IMG/VR virus record: IMGVR_UViG_2713896903_000003
DNA length: 5,539 bases
Reading direction: 5' to 3' (one strand)
Source: a virus
Taxonomy: Duplodnaviria > Heunggongvirae > Uroviricota > Caudoviricetes
The first letter of the stretch is position 1. Each line of letters opens with the position of its first letter. The translations under genes were made by a program, and so were the position numbers. The notes under the pieces are model-generated. The model ran no database searches. It saw nothing but the letters and a program-made list of their open reading frames with translations, and was not told the origin of the DNA. Below are positions 1,345 through 4,691 of this stretch, piece after piece.

Positions 1345-1568
1345 GCTCCTCTCCTTTGATGCGAATGCCAGCGGTAATTGAAGCCTGATAGCTAATTTCA
1401 CTCACAGTACCGCCTCCTGAAAATTACCCTGATAGAAAGCCAGTACACGCTGCATAGCTTCGCTCTTCCGGCACTCGCGACAGATTATATTCAGGCGCCT
1501 GTCGTAGCGGCGTATTTCTCCGTCTGGTAATGACCAGATAAGGTCCGGATCAATCACAGATGTTTTCT

Positions 1569-1823: not shown

Positions 1824-1863
1824 AAGTCCTCCTGAAAATTACCTCGTGACCTGAAATAAACAC

Positions 1864-2934
1864 TTACCCCCTGAAGCCCGGTGGAATTTCGGTATCTGGT
1901 TCAGAAATGTGATTCACGCAACGCTGGTTGTTCGTACCGCTTACCGGGAGCAACCAGGGGTTTTCAAAATTCCGGTCCGGTCCAAAAAACGTCGTCGCTC
2001 GCTGAACAAATTCCGTTCCCGTTTTCCCGGTAGCCGCCAGGTATCTTGCGTAACGCCTCACACCATCCAGCATGGCTTCTGGTGGCACCCCCTCGCGTAA
2101 TCTGGCCTTCCAGGCACTGAAAGCGGATTTCTTCGGGTTTGCCCCGGCACGCAACGGGTACTCCCGCCAGACCTGTTCGAACACATCCGGATAATCCACT
2201 CGTCCCACAGACTGCCCGGTGTTTTCCGGGACTACCCGATCGGCTTCCCGCTGAATGGCGGAATCGGCTTCAGGCTGCTGCAGTTGGTGTGATTGCTCCG
2301 GCCTTGCGGTCATCACCTGCTGCACAGCGCCCGAATCGGCTTTCAGCGCATACGCTGAATCGGCTTCCGGTGTCGTGCCTGCTGGCTGACCAGGATTGAC
2401 GGTCTGAACACCCCCTGCCTGGTTCGTGGCGTTTTTTACGCCATGGACCATAGTGTTTTGATCTTCTTGATCTGTATCTTTATCTGTATCTTTATCTGTC
2501 GTGACTCGTCGTGACATGTGCGTGACATTTCGTGACGCGCCGTGACAATCGCCATTTTGTTCCCGCTTTCTTTCCCTCTCTCGCTGCGCCCTCTTGCGCT
2601 CTGCAGGAGATTTTGCGGTTTGCGAAATATTGCCGTTGTCCTCTTTAAGCACTTGGCGTTTTTCCCATCCAGTGATTAAATCACCATCAAGTACCCGCCC
2701 CTGCATCGTCTGCAAAATTGAATCAATTACCTCTTCTGTCACGTCGAGCGCACTTGCCAAATCTTCTGTCGTGACATCAATGTGACCTCGCGTGACATTT
2801 CGTGACGCGCTCACCAGGAGGTGGATATACACTGCCATCACTGTTGCAATTGGCTGCCCTGACACCCTGGCAATTGTTCGCCACTTAGGGTCATTTGGCA
2901 TGTCATGCCATAATCTGAGCCAGGCGTTAGCCAT
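1864..2934 (-). CDS. Putative phage replication initiation protein (O-like replisome organizer), 356 aa, with origin-like iterons inside the coding sequence
   Basis: Long ORF. Preferred start is ATG 2934-2932 with AAGAGGTGA SD; the track begins at GTG 2940. N-terminus (AWLRLWHDMPNDPKWRTIARVSG...VYIHLLVSAS) fits the winged-helix pattern of phage/plasmid replication initiators, and the C-terminus (FEQVWREYP...AFSAWKARL...NPWL) fits a motif common in such initiators. Sits where lambda O sits, downstream of the cro/cII equivalents. Contains two CGTGAC iteron arrays. Confidence 0.7.
   Translation of the reverse strand: MANAWLRLWHDMPNDPKWRTIARVSGQPIATVMAVYIHLLVSASRNVTRGHIDVTTEDLASALDVTEEVIDSILQTMQGRVLDGDLITGWEKRQVLKEDNGNISQTAKSPAERKRAQRERERKREQNGDCHGASRNVTHMSRRVTTDKDTDKDTDQEDQNTMVHGVKNATNQAGGVQTVNPGQPAGTTPEADSAYALKADSGAVQQVMTARPEQSHQLQQPEADSAIQREADRVVPENTGQSVGRVDYPDVFEQVWREYPLRAGANPKKSAFSAWKARLREGVPPEAMLDGVRRYARYLAATGKTGTEFVQRATTFFGPDRNFENPWLLPVSGTNNQRCVNHISEPDTEIPPGFRG
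2470..2499. repeat. Tandem 12-bp repeat ATCTGTATCTTT (about 2.5 copies), encoding (TD/KD)n in the initiator protein
   Basis: Read directly: atctgtatcttt at 2470-2481 and 2482-2493, then atctgt at 2494-2499. Immediately abuts iteron array 1. Confidence 0.8.
2500..2546. repeat. Iteron array 1: five direct CGTGAC repeats at 10/11/10/10-bp spacing (candidate origin of replication)
   Basis: CGTGAC at 2500, 2510, 2521, 2531 and 2541, i.e. helical-turn phasing. Lies in the middle of the initiator gene, analogous to lambda ori inside O. Followed by a pyrimidine-rich tract encoding a K/R/E-rich linker. Confidence 0.65.
2732..2810. repeat. Iteron array 2: four direct (C/T)GTGAC repeats plus one inverted copy; the final 20 bp are identical to the end of array 1
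   Basis: GTGAC at 2771, 2782, 2792 and 2802 (11/10/10 spacing). Inverted CGTGAC at 2738-2743. tcttctgtc duplicated at 2732-2740 and 2762-2770. cgtgacatttcgtgacgcgc is identical at 2791-2810 and 2521-2540. Confidence 0.6.
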
Positions 2935-3005
2935 ACTCACCTCTTTTGATACCGAATCTTTTTACTCACAAATTGCCGGAAGTGATCCGGTATGAATATT
3001 GCGAG

Positions 3006-3431
3006 TCAATGCACAGCCACAATATTTCCTGCAGGGCCACCACGATTCATCTGGTTGAAACCAGCGATCGCCACTGCGACAAAATCATCAGCGTCTCTCA
3101 CCAGTCGCTCCCGCGTCTCCACCAGCTCCCGAAAATAAGCTGAACTGTGGCTGCGCATTCTGGCCACCAGCAAAGGTGGCATTGCCTTTTCGATCGCTGG
3201 TAACAACGCCTGAATTTTTTCAACTGCATCAGGGGTGTCTTTCTCTACCCAGCGGAAAATTTTCTGGGTATTGCGAGCCAGGGCTTCCGGATGGCTGTCG
3301 TCATACAGTTCAGGAAACGTCATACCCAACTCAAAATAAGCCTGGGTTATTCCAGCTGCTGGAACTTTTTCGCCATCAGGACGCGCCCAGGCATTCATCG
3401 CCATGCGGATGTGTTCATGCTTGATTTTCAT
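3006..3431 (-). CDS. ydaT: YdaT-like protein (functional CII equivalent of Rac/CP-933P-type prophages), 141 aa
   Basis: ATG at 3431 overlaps the TGA of the upstream HTH gene (ATGA). GGAG SD 8 nt upstream. Size and position, second gene after the Cro-like HTH, match the ydaS-ydaT arrangement. Name assigned from memory of that family, not from a search. Confidence 0.6.
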   Translation of the reverse strand: MKIKHEHIRMAMNAWARPDGEKVPAAGITQAYFELGMTFPELYDDSHPEALARNTQKIFRWVEKDTPDAVEKIQALLPAIEKAMPPLLVARMRSHSSAYFRELVETRERLVRDADDFVAVAIAGFNQMNRGGPAGNIVAVH

Positions 3432-3730
3432 GAATCAACTCCATCAGATAAGCATGCACTACAATCACCTTCAGCATGAACTACATGTGTTTGCCCCAAA
3501 CGAATACCGCTCGCATACTCAGGCCAAATAAGCTCCCAATCATGGGGTCGTAGCTCCGCCCTACTTACTTGGCCTTCCGTCGCAGATTCGATCATAAGGG
3601 CGCGGGTTGGAGATATAGCTGCTCGTCCAGACGCCATTTGCGATAAGTAAGATGGCGATACACCAAGTCTGGCCGCGAATTTCTTAGCATCACCAACCCT
3701 CAATGATTTAATAAACTCTTTTAATGTCAT
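3428..3730 (-). CDS. ydaS: Cro-like XRE-family HTH regulator (YdaS-like), 100 aa
   Basis: ATG at 3730 with GAGGAAGG SD. HTH signature (AKKFAARLGVSPSYLSQMASGR). Divergent from the repressor gene across an operator-rich intergenic region; translationally coupled to the downstream gene. Confidence 0.7.
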   Translation of the reverse strand: MTLKEFIKSLRVGDAKKFAARLGVSPSYLSQMASGRAAISPTRALMIESATEGQVSRAELRPHDWELIWPEYASGIRLGQTHVVHAEGDCSACLSDGVDS

Positions 3731-3827: not shown

Positions 3828-4199
3828 ATGCAAAAAAAAGAAATTCGCCGTTTACGTCTCAAGGAGTGGTTTAAAGATAAAACTCTGCCACCCAAAGAGA
3901 AGAGCTACCTATCTCAACTAATGAGTGGGAGGGCCTCGTTTGGAGAAAAGGCTGCCAGAAGAATAGAGCAAACATACGGGATGCCGGAAGGGTATCTGGA
4001 TGCGGAATACGCAGAACAACCGGAAGCTTCTCCACCACATGCGGGGTTAACGTCTAATCAACTGGAATTATTGCAGATTTTTTCAGCCTTCCCTGAGGAT
4101 GAGCAACGCCAGATAATCAGCGAGTTAAAGCAGAAAAAAGAATCAATGGAAGATCTCATAGCGAGATGGATTGCGGCGCAAAAATGCCGCCGCGCCTGA
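3828..4199 (+). CDS. paaR2: Prophage repressor / transcriptional regulator of the three-component TA operon (PaaR2-like; DicA/cI functional analogue), 123 aa
   Basis: ATG at 3828 preferred over the GTG at 3765 used by the ORF track. No SD, and the -10 ends 6 nt upstream, suggesting a leaderless mRNA like lambda cI from PRM. N-terminal HTH-like segment (LSQLMSGRASFGEKAARRIEQ). Divergent to the Cro-like gene. Symbol from memory of the CP-933P module. Confidence 0.65.
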   Translation: MQKKEIRRLRLKEWFKDKTLPPKEKSYLSQLMSGRASFGEKAARRIEQTYGMPEGYLDAEYAEQPEASPPHAGLTSNQLELLQIFSAFPEDEQRQIISELKQKKESMEDLIARWIAAQKCRRA

Positions 4200-4219
4200 G
4201 TTATAAAACCGGAGGAAAC

Positions 4220-4411
4220 ATGAATAGAGCCCTTTCACCAATGGTTTCTGAATTTGAAACCATTGAACAAGAAAACAGTTACAACGAATGGCTGCGCGCG
4301 AAAGTAGCAACGAGCCTTGCAGATCCGCGCCCAGCAATTCCCCATGACGAAGTTGAGCGCAGAATGGCAGAACGCTTTGCTAAAATGCGCAAGGAACGGA
4401 GCAAGCAGTAA
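4220..4411 (+). CDS. paaA2: Small antitoxin-like protein (PaaA2-like), 63 aa
   Basis: ATG 4220 with GGAGG SD. Stop TAA 4409-4411 lies 1 nt before the toxin ATG. Small, charged, likely partly disordered protein immediately upstream of a ParE-like toxin. The ORF-track start at 4166 is rejected as it has no RBS. Confidence 0.65.
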   Translation: MNRALSPMVSEFETIEQENSYNEWLRAKVATSLADPRPAIPHDEVERRMAERFAKMRKERSKQ

Positions 4412-4412
4412 A

Positions 4413-4691
4413 ATGTTACCCGTGTTATGGCTTGAAAGCGCAGATACCGACCTAGATGATATAACTAGTTATATTGCTCGTTTCGACATAGATGCGGCTG
4501 AACGCTTATGGCAGCGATTAAGGGGTTGTGTGCTGCCGTTATCCGAACATCCGTATTTATACCCACCAAGCGACAGAGTACCTGGCTTGCGTGAGATTGT
4601 AGCCCACCCTAACTATATAATTCTATACCGCGTAACAACATCAAGCGTTGAAGTAGTAAACGTGATCCACGCAAGACGCCAGTTTCCCTAA
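4413..4691 (+). CDS. parE2: ParE/RelE-superfamily toxin (ParE2-like), 92 aa
   Basis: ATG 4413 tightly coupled to the upstream gene. C-terminal pattern REIVAHPNYIILYRV...VEVVNVIHARRQFP is typical of ParE/RelE-fold toxins. The ORF-track start at 4317 would overlap the antitoxin gene and is rejected. Confidence 0.7.
   Translation: MLPVLWLESADTDLDDITSYIARFDIDAAERLWQRLRGCVLPLSEHPYLYPPSDRVPGLREIVAHPNYIILYRVTTSSVEVVNVIHARRQFP

Follow-up and report, generated by a model that had tools for sequence, protein, structure and literature searches.

Does a regularly spaced array of short repeats in the middle of a prophage replication gene mark the place where replication starts and, if so, which part of the encoded protein reads it? 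We addressed this question in one stretch of 5,539 bp, referred to here as the window, and in homologues of the gene. We think it likely that the initiator gene of this E. coli prophage harbours a replication origin made of three parts: a repeat array over the codons of an inter-domain linker (array A), an A/T-rich tract next to it, and a second repeat array (array B). The best reading of these parts is an origin of the replisome-organizer type, akin to those of lambda and SPP1, which would be bound by the initiator and would carry a bipartite, co-evolving set of iterons. This reading is supported by the identity of the gene, a layout shared by about 50 species, conservation at the level of DNA, the A/T codon choice in the tract, and clusters of the motif that, in two complete phage genomes, are found only within the gene. 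Origins inside initiator genes are textbook knowledge for lambda and a few Gram-positive phages. As judged from sequence comparison, what is new here is a second, matching array within the codons of a folded N-terminal domain, together with the recurrence of this layout in a large family of phages that has not been studied. In the phage collection, this N-domain occurs only in recently sequenced, uncharacterised phages; we found no paper in the literature on GTCACG iterons or on the origin of this initiator family, and a paper on the 'Eru' replication types of Stx phages does not mention iterons or origins.

The initiator gene and its genomic setting

On its minus strand, the window carries a lambdoid early-right operon from an E. 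coli prophage, in which a cro/YdaS-like gene and a cII/YdaT-like gene are followed by the initiator and then by DUF977/LygF and proteins of unknown function. Downstream of the initiator in the window, neither the ORF list nor Pfam or PHROG revealed a helicase or loader gene. The neighbouring DUF977 gene is frameshifted, so the prophage may be defective and the origin may be a relic in this copy. The features on which our argument draws are as follows.

1864..2934, minus strand: replication initiator/replisome-organizer gene (from the ORF list, phrog_3729 and RefSeq names)
2768..2807, minus strand: iteron array B, with four direct repeats oriented like those of array A
2738..2743, plus strand: one inverted core copy, reading GTCACG on the plus strand, in codons D66-V67-T68
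2650..2934, minus strand: coding region of the N-terminal winged-helix domain (residues 3-97)
2548..2607, minus strand: coding region of a basic helix (residues 112-131, PAERKRAQRERERKREQNG), a helix in the model, between the N-domain and array A
2498..2547, minus strand: iteron array A (the linker array), five direct repeats with the gene-strand core GTCACG
2461..2499, minus strand: A/T-rich, purine-rich tract (GATAAAGATACA)n, the proposed DNA-unwinding element, directly 3' of array A
1867..2199, minus strand: coding region of the C-terminal domain (about residues 248-358), with a DnaT-like tail and PHROG matches
1845..1850, minus strand: isolated CGTGAC copy, 14 bp beyond the initiator stop codon

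The open reading frame (1864-2940, minus strand) opens with a GTG at 2940 and has 358 codons; residues are numbered from this GTG throughout. Translation probably starts instead at the ATG at 2934, giving an initiator of 356 aa, because an AGAGG ribosome-binding site lies upstream, the PHROG profile aligns from residue 3 and the homologue in phage Tritos is annotated with 356 aa. The ORF matches phrog_3729 ('replication initiation protein') over residues 3-358 with E 6e-257, which agrees with an earlier, sequence-only reading of this DNA that had placed the array mid-gene in a putative replication initiator. RefSeq labels near-identical genes 'phage replisome organizer', and the annotation of the Tritos homologue reads 'Replication protein, N-terminal phage replisome organiser'. 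PHROG families named 'replisome organizer' give matches with E 6e-6 and 2e-4. The match of PF09681 to the N-terminal part is weak (E 0.014, 15.8 bits versus a cut-off of 23.3, profile positions 1-119 of 121) and reaches E 0.1 or better in only 2 of 24 family members. Because the Pfam and NCBIfam scans returned no family above threshold, the family placement rests on PHROGs, the fold and RefSeq names; Pfam revealed no Rep_3 or RepA-type domain either, and Phage_rep_O gave no Pfam-A match to the whole protein or to its N-terminal 127 residues at E values up to 10. The family itself is large, with about 2,500 representatives (50% identity; E 1e-10 or better), and is common in E. coli prophages.

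Two iteron arrays and an A/T-rich tract

The hexamer CGTGAC occurs ten times in the window, against 1.97 expected copies, and none of 200 dinucleotide shuffles contained ten or more. In array A the copies start, on the plus strand, at 2500, 2510, 2521, 2531 and 2541 (spacing 10/11/10/10 bp); the array codes for C132-T148, and its cores are read in all three reading frames. Adjoining it, at 2465-2499, Tandem Repeats Finder places 2.9 copies of the 12-bp unit TCTTTATCTGTA. The tract to which this repeat belongs encodes D149-D157 (DKDTDKDTD) and the residues that follow, and is the most AT-rich 40-bp stretch of the initiator gene (72-75% AT). Array B, with CGTGAC at 2770, 2791 and 2801 and TGTGAC at 2781 (spacing 11/10/10 bp), sits in the coding region of the N-terminal winged-helix domain, where it encodes A45-T57 (ASRNVTRGHIDVT), about 230 bp upstream of array A on the gene strand and without an adjoining A/T tract of its own. 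No DnaA box with one mismatch or fewer was found, and none lies near the arrays.

Much of what the sequence-only reading had described is recovered here, namely the five CGTGAC copies with their spacing and the 12-bp tandem repeat abutting them, while other parts need correction. It had the DNA repeats translated into a TD/KD repeat that was followed by a K/R/E-rich linker. The DNA repeats are indeed coding, but the DK/DT repeat comes from the 12-bp tandem repeat and not from the CGTGAC units, and the order on the gene strand is instead the K/R/E-rich helix (residues 112-131), the iteron peptide C132-T148 and then the D-K-D-T repeat (residues 149-157). Its view of a single origin-like array is supported for array A but was incomplete, as neither the second array (2770-2806) nor the pattern across the family had been noticed.

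Taken as an origin, these elements would work as follows. The N-terminal domain of newly made initiator would bind the iterons cooperatively on one face of the helix, with the five GTCACG iterons of array A, one per helical turn, lying over the codons of the disordered inter-domain linker. Array B, four iterons of the same orientation within codons 45-57, would form the third part of the origin; looping or wrapping may juxtapose the two arrays; alternatively, array B may be an auxiliary or control locus. Binding stress would then melt the adjacent (GATAAAGATACA)n tract, the putative unwinding element directly 3' of array A on the gene strand, and the C-terminal domain with its DnaT-like tail would engage the single strand and/or the host DnaB-DnaC machinery.

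Conservation of the layout and selection on the DNA

The same layout, with array B, a gap of about 230 bp, array A in its 10/11-bp spacing and an A/T- and purine-rich (GATAAA)n tract, was found in about 50 homologues from different species (one per species, 37-69% GC, from Gamma-, Beta- and Alphaproteobacteria and Acidobacteria). Within array A the spacing is 10 bp in 102 intervals and 11 bp in 14, and with loci aligned on the final core alone, 1.4-1.8 bits for each core position remain at -10 and -20; in most homologues, array B is found +86 to +117 from the DPKW codon. The repeat cores differ among lineages (GTCACG, CGAACG, GTAACG and a fourth class, GCAACG, found in Ralstonia phage Hennie), and the core was identical in arrays A and B at all 49 loci at which both were detected (26 GTCAC, 17 GAACG, 6 GTAAC). 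In a tree built without the loop columns, the iteron class switches at least eight times. Two close relatives, L109 (GTAACG) and L111 (GTCACG), differ in every copy of both arrays, and even the position of the inverted copy tracks the class via synonymous change (GTT ACA in L109, GTG ACG in L111). Array B is missing in homologues L123, L125, L143 and L004, and L113, L116 and L131 have one or two recognisable cores at most, which counts against the proposed origin. In E. albertii, a 7-aa insertion (TCHGVSL) in the array-B segment amounts to a tolerated insertion of a whole iteron. A search of plasmids returned only prophage-like inserts and two 51-kb P. aeruginosa records resembling phage genomes, none of them a small replicon of the kind that would prove self-sufficiency. 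The distance from one array to the other tends to fall near 0 mod 10 (R 0.51, Rayleigh p ~8e-7); we do not rely on helical phasing between the arrays because a 9-bp period, as expected from three-codon indels, fits equally well and the loci are related.

The tract is conserved in its own way. The 36 bp after the last iteron fall within the top 5% of AT-rich windows of their own ORF in 43 of 53 loci, with a mean AT content of 68% versus 44% and 76% purine on the gene strand. Codon choice is biased accordingly: among Asp codons GAT makes up 96% in the tract versus 46% in the rest of the gene (p 2.5e-37; here and in our other significance tests, species are counted as independent although they are related), and among Lys codons AAA makes up 78% versus 47%. 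This bias towards A/T holds even in genes of 58-69% GC, and the tract sequence is shared across iteron classes. Among 80 near-identical E. coli copies, the copy number differs by 6 or 12 bp; the underlying scan of viral contigs yielded only 99%-identical E. coli copies and is informative for this polymorphism only.

At the cores of array B, 98% of third codon positions are invariant among 23 species, as opposed to 54% at other conserved residues (Mann-Whitney p 7.5e-6, again with related species counted as independent). The peptide encoded by array A differs between relatives (CHGASRNVTHMSRRVTT in the window, VTQCHAESRNVT in phi1). Given that cores are read in all three frames, that third positions are frozen and that GAT is favoured in the tract, these comparisons indicate that selection acts on the DNA of the cores and the tract. 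The earlier suggestion that the same bases are constrained both as a site and as codons is thus upheld, with a hexamer that stays constant while the peptide varies and with frozen synonymous sites in array B; across homologues, array and tract are kept at the same place in about 50 species while the amino acids change. A repeat maintained at the level of protein was rejected, given the cores in all three frames and the frozen synonymous sites.

Could the repeats nevertheless be a by-product of low complexity in a flexible linker, driven by the protein or by slippage and devoid of any function as DNA? The predicted disorder of linker residues 132-157 (pLDDT below 50) and the variable copy number of the 12-bp repeat among near-identical E. 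coli copies would fit this view. Yet the hexamer is constant in all three frames while peptides differ between species, synonymous positions in the cores are frozen, the core recurs in a structured part of the N-domain with arrays A and B always matching, and GAT and AAA are favoured even in GC-rich genes, all of which makes this explanation extremely improbable.

A different possibility is that the repeats are bound by the initiator but serve control, as an autoregulatory roadblock, by titration, or by handcuffing of the incA/incC kind seen in P1 and F, with the true origin elsewhere. Iteron plasmids do have an origin set of iterons and a separate control set, and here there are likewise two separate arrays, one of them without an adjoining A/T tract. 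Moreover, in some homologues the N-domain is fused to an HNH nuclease, and these keep array B and lack array A, so array B can exist outside an origin context. We nonetheless hold a control role with an origin elsewhere to be quite unlikely. In 43 of 53 loci, array A is followed by a strongly selected A/T tract, which is what marks an unwinding element and not an operator. In the complete Tritos and phi1 genomes, motif clusters (at least three same-strand copies within 45 bp) occur only inside the initiator gene, which leaves no candidate for a true origin with the same sites, and in characterised replisome organizers the in-gene repeats are the ori (PMC6316719, PMC8965321).

Protein modules, known systems and implications

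If the repeats are origin iterons, the N-terminal winged-helix domain is the presumed binding module. Within this folded domain, only positions encoded by array B (47-50 and 53-57) separate the GTCACG class from the CGAACG class; the adjacent basic helix, in which R115 and R120 are nearly invariant, also has class-specific residues, e.g., Q119 versus W119. By rmsd, the best structural match of the modelled N-domain is the N-domain of DnaD, which is known as an oligomerisation module rather than a DNA-binding one. The modelled canonical recognition helix (residues 69-79, EEVIDSILQTM) is acidic and poorly conserved. Both points count against the proposed origin, as the helix offers no obvious means by which the domain would read DNA.

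At the other end of the protein, the final 13 residues (SEPDTEIPPGFRG) differ very little from the C-terminus of E. coli DnaT (SEPDNHIPPGFRG). With phmmer against the PDB, the DnaT chains 6aep, 2ru8 and 9zbt match the last 21-24 residues only (E 0.02-0.07), and the NCBIfam DnaT model (NF002770) scores 18.1 bits (E 0.0016), far below its cut-off of 201, which does not make the protein a full-length DnaT. Matches to phrog_1701 ('DnaD-like helicase loader', E 1e-62) and phrog_9327 ('primosomal protein', E 8e-16) were found as well, and the C-terminal domain is presumed to provide the link to the host helicase-loading machinery.

C-terminal regions combine freely with iteron classes. They form 15 unrelated BLAST clusters, and the large clusters mix iteron classes; listed homologous proteins were only short or partial ones, and an alignment of the C-terminal part contained many frameshifted fragments. 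Iteron class is thus independent of the C-terminal type, which leaves the N-domain as the only constant partner. Similarity breaks off right after the tract, with phi1, for example, sharing only residues 3-140. Such a mosaic, together with a tract sequence kept across iteron classes, could mean that the iterons and AGATAAAGATAAAGA at the domain boundary are maintained mainly as a recombination junction for swapping C-terminal/helicase-loading modules. This seems very unlikely to us, as it leaves unexplained the helical phasing, the class-specific cores, the matching array 230 bp away and the concerted switching; module exchange is more likely a consequence of a conserved origin sequence than its purpose.

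Within the origin reading, one may speculate, with considerable doubt, that array B is a binding site whose nucleotides also encode the specificity-setting part of the initiator. If loop 45-57 contacts the variable half of the iteron, reader and site would be the same DNA, and gene conversion between the two arrays could propagate a new origin specificity in nearly one step, which would explain at least eight concerted class switches without discordant intermediates. The narrower claim that the loop alone sets specificity is weakened by the class-specific residues in the basic helix and by the switch from class 1 to class 3, which can be silent since GTC and GTA both encode Val in frame 0.

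The parallel with lambda that the sequence-only reading had drawn stands for the logic but not for the protein, which is not a homologue of lambda O; with no Phage_rep_O match in Pfam, the comparison is one of logic and not of family. Shared with lambda are the mid-gene position (here codons 132-160 of 358), a repeat array with an AT-rich tract behind it as transcription runs, a putatively origin-binding N-terminal half with a C-terminal half recruiting helicase loading, and an initiator gene directly after cro and cII in the early-right operon. Lambda iterons are about 19 bp long, and a gene for the P-type helicase loader follows O. Here, by contrast, units are 10-11 bp long with an asymmetric core of 6-7 bp and form direct repeats, a second array lies in the N-domain coding sequence, and a DnaT-like tail stands in place of a P-type loader gene. 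The lambda ori consists of iterons, which are inverted repeats, and an AT-rich tract in mid-O; in lambda-type origins, among them those of Stx phages 933W and P27, the protein becomes longer with each additional iteron (PMC7466680).

The Gram-positive replisome organizers (PF09681/TIGR01714) likewise have direct repeats inside their own gene and an adjoining AT-rich region. In SPP1, gp38 binds the direct oriL repeats within gene 38, beside an AT-rich unwinding element (PMC6316719), and TP901-1 ORF13 and Tuc2009 Rep2009 bind direct repeats in their own genes that serve as ori (PMC8965321). Unlike SPP1, whose second origin oriR is intergenic and about 13 kb away (PMC6316719), the second array here is 230 bp away in the same gene, and Tritos and phi1 have no other cluster. 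For phages with Gram-positive organizers, we came across no account of iteron classes that co-vary or of iterons placed within a folded domain.

Iteron plasmids (P1, F, R6K, RK2, pPS10) have short, helix-phased direct repeats bound by a winged-helix initiator, with two iteron sets near or around the rep gene and an AT-rich unwinding element alongside. Phased short direct repeats, two sets, an AT-rich tract and a winged-helix protein are all present in our locus. Plasmid iterons are, however, 17-22 bp long and intergenic, their origins contain a DnaA box, and their initiators are of the Rep_3 type with tandem winged helices; the units here measure 10-11 bp and lie within coding sequence, with no Rep_3/RepA domain and no DnaA box near the arrays. 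As for DnaT and DnaD, the likeness consists of the DnaT-like last 13 residues and the DnaD-like N-domain fold, the match to DnaT being limited to the tail, and we know of no binding of sequence-specific origin repeats by either protein. The C-terminal domain of DnaT assembles into filaments on ssDNA and marks the site at which helicase is loaded (PMC13377028).

Our comparative data amount to an origin annotation for thousands of prophages, giving iteron class, array positions and unwinding tract. Natural specificity-switch pairs, such as the relatives L109 and L111, make the co-evolution of initiator and origin directly testable. Array B, in turn, shows how far a DNA signal laid over codons shapes a folded domain, with residues 45-57 essentially dictated by four putative sites. 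Finally, the origin fragment and the N-domain could become orthogonal replication or incompatibility modules, and could help to predict replication interference between co-resident prophages.

Gene context and the initiator protein

The window comes from a lambdoid E. coli prophage and covers its immunity and replication region; the early-right operon lies on the minus strand.

Genes and repeat features of the window
3828-4691 (+): PaaR2-like regulator with paaA2-parE2 toxin-antitoxin genes
3428-3730 (-): cro/YdaS-like gene
3006-3431 (-): cII/YdaT-like gene
1864-2940 (-): initiator ORF, phrog_3729 'replication initiation protein' (E 6e-257)
2768-2807 (-): array B, iterons in the N-domain codons
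2498-2547 (-): array A, iterons in the linker codons
2461-2499 (-): A/T- and purine-rich tract, 3' of array A
1569-1823 and 1402-1557 (-): split DUF977/LygF gene

DNA near-identical to the window is carried by the inducible E. coli phages Tritos, Evi and the vB_Eco series and by thousands of E. coli genomes, the RefSeq name of the gene being 'phage replisome organizer'. The PaaR2-like regulator, followed by the PaaA2 antitoxin and ParE toxin genes, occupies the lambdoid repressor position, divergent from the cro-like gene, and this three-component module appears to double as the prophage's immunity region. Downstream of the initiator, a 1-nt deletion near 1587 relative to phage Tritos (AAAAA-CTC vs AAAAAGCTC) breaks the DUF977/LygF (Ren-like) gene into its two ORFs, reflecting either a decaying prophage copy or a sequence error. 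An isolated CGTGAC lies in the short gap ahead of this gene (1845-1850, 14 bp beyond the initiator stop).

The initiator likely starts at the ATG at 2934; residues are counted here from the GTG at 2940. In the AlphaFold2 model, which covers residues 1-157, the N-domain is confident (block-mean pLDDT 87-97 over residues 11-90) and predicted to comprise three helices (3-16, 18-27 and 31-47), the loop-strand segment 48-57, two further helices (58-65 and 69-79), a beta wing and helix 92-95; a basic helix (112-131) follows, and residues 132-157 are modelled as disordered. Lower-score structural matches of the N-domain include the ORC2 winged helix and a plasmid initiator. The canonical recognition helix of the N-domain has an acidic, variable sequence. 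The match to Pfam PF09681 (phage replisome organizer, N-terminal) extends over the whole profile but scores below threshold, and membership in that family is borderline. The C-terminal half matches the PHROG families 'DnaD-like helicase loader' and 'primosomal protein', and the protein ends in 13 residues, SEPDTEIPPGFRG, that match the tail of DnaT; neither a helicase nor a loader gene was found downstream of the initiator in the window. Identification as a lambda O homologue was rejected; the likeness to lambda O and to replisome organizers would be one of function, without homology to lambda O. The inter-domain region also holds a second repeat family, (G/C)ATCGGCTT, whose four copies (2239-2274 and 2335-2370, +) form two pairs 96 bp apart, translated on the gene strand as the peptide repeat EADSA.

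Two iteron arrays and their layout across homologues

CGTGAC occurs ten times in the window against 1.97 expected, a count reached in none of 200 shuffles. The five repeats described in the sequence-only reading were recovered, starting at 2500, 2510, 2521, 2531 and 2541, as was the abutting 12-bp tandem repeat (2.9 copies over 2465-2499, encoding DKDTDKDTD). On the gene strand, the array A cores (GTCACG) fall in successive different frames, giving C-H-G-A-S-R-N-V-T-H-M-S-R-R-V-T, and they occupy codons of a predicted disordered linker, given the modelled disorder of residues 132-157. That reading overlooked array B, at 2770, 2781 (TGTGAC), 2791 and 2801, oriented as array A; it encodes A45-T57 inside the N-domain, which in the modelled secondary structure would be the end of helix 31-47 and the following loop and strand. 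One inverted core lies at 2738-2743.

A profile of the N-domain retrieved 2,540 cluster representatives (clustered at 50% identity) with E values of 1e-10 or lower. A one-genome-per-species scan yielded 63 loci spread over Acidobacteria and the Gamma-, Beta- and Alphaproteobacteria; a phage collection supplied Pseudomonas phage phi1 and Ralstonia phage Hennie in addition. Measured from the invariant DPKW codon, one gene-strand layout is common to nearly all loci: array B spans about +86 to +117, array A about +310 to +390, and behind array A come (GATAAA)n, (GATACA)n or (AGAGAAG)n. Of the intervals between iterons, 102 in array A and 78 in array B measure 10 bp, against 14 and 25, respectively, that measure 11 bp. 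BLAST sorts the C-terminal regions into 15 unrelated clusters, the large ones mixing iteron classes, and only the N-domain is therefore constantly paired with the repeats. No motif clusters lie outside the initiator gene in the complete genomes of Tritos and phi1. The phi1 GenBank record leaves the initiator unannotated, a 300-310-aa ORF with both arrays (L150 24906-25790; KT887557.1 32905-33789). In 80 near-identical E. coli prophage copies (L006-L085) there are always five iterons, individual cores seldom carry a single-base variant (about 1 in 80 copies each), and the (GATAAAGATACA) tract is longer by 12 bp in four copies and by 6 bp in two, always in frame.

Array B, apparently a new feature and new to us, is independent of array A, because each occurs without the other: array B persists without array A in HNH-fusion homologues, and some homologues have array A only. 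Homologues in which an HNH nuclease is joined directly to the N-domain include P0043, P0061, P0075, P0105, P0106, P0114 and locus L151 (4001-4546), where the four array-B iterons are kept without array A or the A/T tract; such a fusion could be an iteron-targeted nuclease. The gene directly downstream at L151 resembles, on visual inspection, a replication gene. Whole-iteron insertions are tolerated in array B (L087 from Escherichia albertii, P0016 and P0017; also L107, L109, L111, L112 and L129); a 7-aa TCHGVSL insertion amounts to two extra iterons, larger loop expansions are also found, and L129 has the identical 11-aa peptide ETTGNAGVTQG in loop and linker alike. In longer homologues at the Serratia and Pantoea loci L132 and L144 (ORF from about 2501), the N-domain precedes a region that we take, by eye, to resemble a GIY-YIG or T5orf172-type domain (YVYYV...GISSNPWAR), and ACTACG(TA) repeats replace the usual iterons.

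Selection on the DNA and switching of iteron classes

Selection acts on the DNA of the repeats and the tract. The sequence-only reading had proposed comparing iterons with their encoded amino acids in homologues; the hexamer is constant and the peptides differ between species, class 1 array-A cores being spread about equally over the three frames (29, 37 and 37). When only the last core is anchored, upstream array-A cores keep 1.4-1.8 bits per position, and spacers mostly less than 1 bit. In array-B cores of 23 class-1 species, third codon positions are 98% invariant (V49 GTC, T50 ACG, G52 GGT and V56 GTC, each 23/23), against an average of 54% for equally conserved other N-domain residues (Mann-Whitney p 7.5e-6, optimistic, like all p-values of these tests, because species were treated as independent); effect sizes are large. 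In the 36 bp after array A the AT content is 68%, compared with 44% over the ORFs, and purines make up 76% of the gene strand; at 43 of 53 loci this stretch ranks within the top 5% of AT-rich windows of its own ORF. Tract Asp codons are GAT in 96% of cases versus 46% elsewhere (p 2.5e-37) and Lys codons AAA in 78% versus 47%, a bias also present in genes of at least 58% GC.

Iteron classes (gene-strand core, examples)
Class 1: (T)GTCACG(C/A); window, phi1
Class 2: (C)CGAACGC; L119, L145
Class 3: (T)GTAACG(C); L107, L109
Class 4: GCAACG(C); Ralstonia phage Hennie

All four cores share a 3' ACG, and arrays A and B have the same core at every locus where both were detected (26, 17 and 6 pairs, none discordant). 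On a neighbour-joining tree with the loop columns left out, the class changes at least eight times. Between the close relatives L109 and L111, every copy in both arrays has switched from GTAACG to GTCACG, including the inverted copy at D66-V67-T68, through a synonymous change. Within the folded domain, only the array-B-encoded residues separate class 1 from class 2, which allows the speculation that the loop they encode is the iteron specificity element. Counter to this idea, the difference between GTC and GTA is silent in frame 0, and the classes also differ in the basic helix.

Array A and the tract as a candidate origin

Array A and the selected A/T-rich tract lie inside the initiator gene and are transcribed from the early-right promoter. 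Initiator-gene repeats beside an AT-rich tract have been characterised in lambda and Stx phages (PMC7466680), and the same anatomy in SPP1 gp38 with oriL (PMC6316719) and in TP901-1 ORF13 and Tuc2009 Rep2009 (PMC8965321); the window's gene matches these in its phased initiator-type repeats beside an A/T-rich tract. Because the anatomy matches three characterised cases, we read array A and the tract as a putative origin core and unwinding element, which supports, as far as sequence analysis reaches, the in-gene origin proposed earlier. Array B may cooperate with array A through looping or wrapping, or may alternatively be an auxiliary or control set. The DnaT C-terminal domain forms a filament on ssDNA (PMC13377028), and since a DnaT-like tail is present and a loader gene absent, we suggest that the host DnaB-DnaC system would receive the melted strand from the C-domain. 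The window's gene differs from the characterised cases in the bipartite layout, the 10-bp units, the array inside domain coding sequence and the switching iteron classes.
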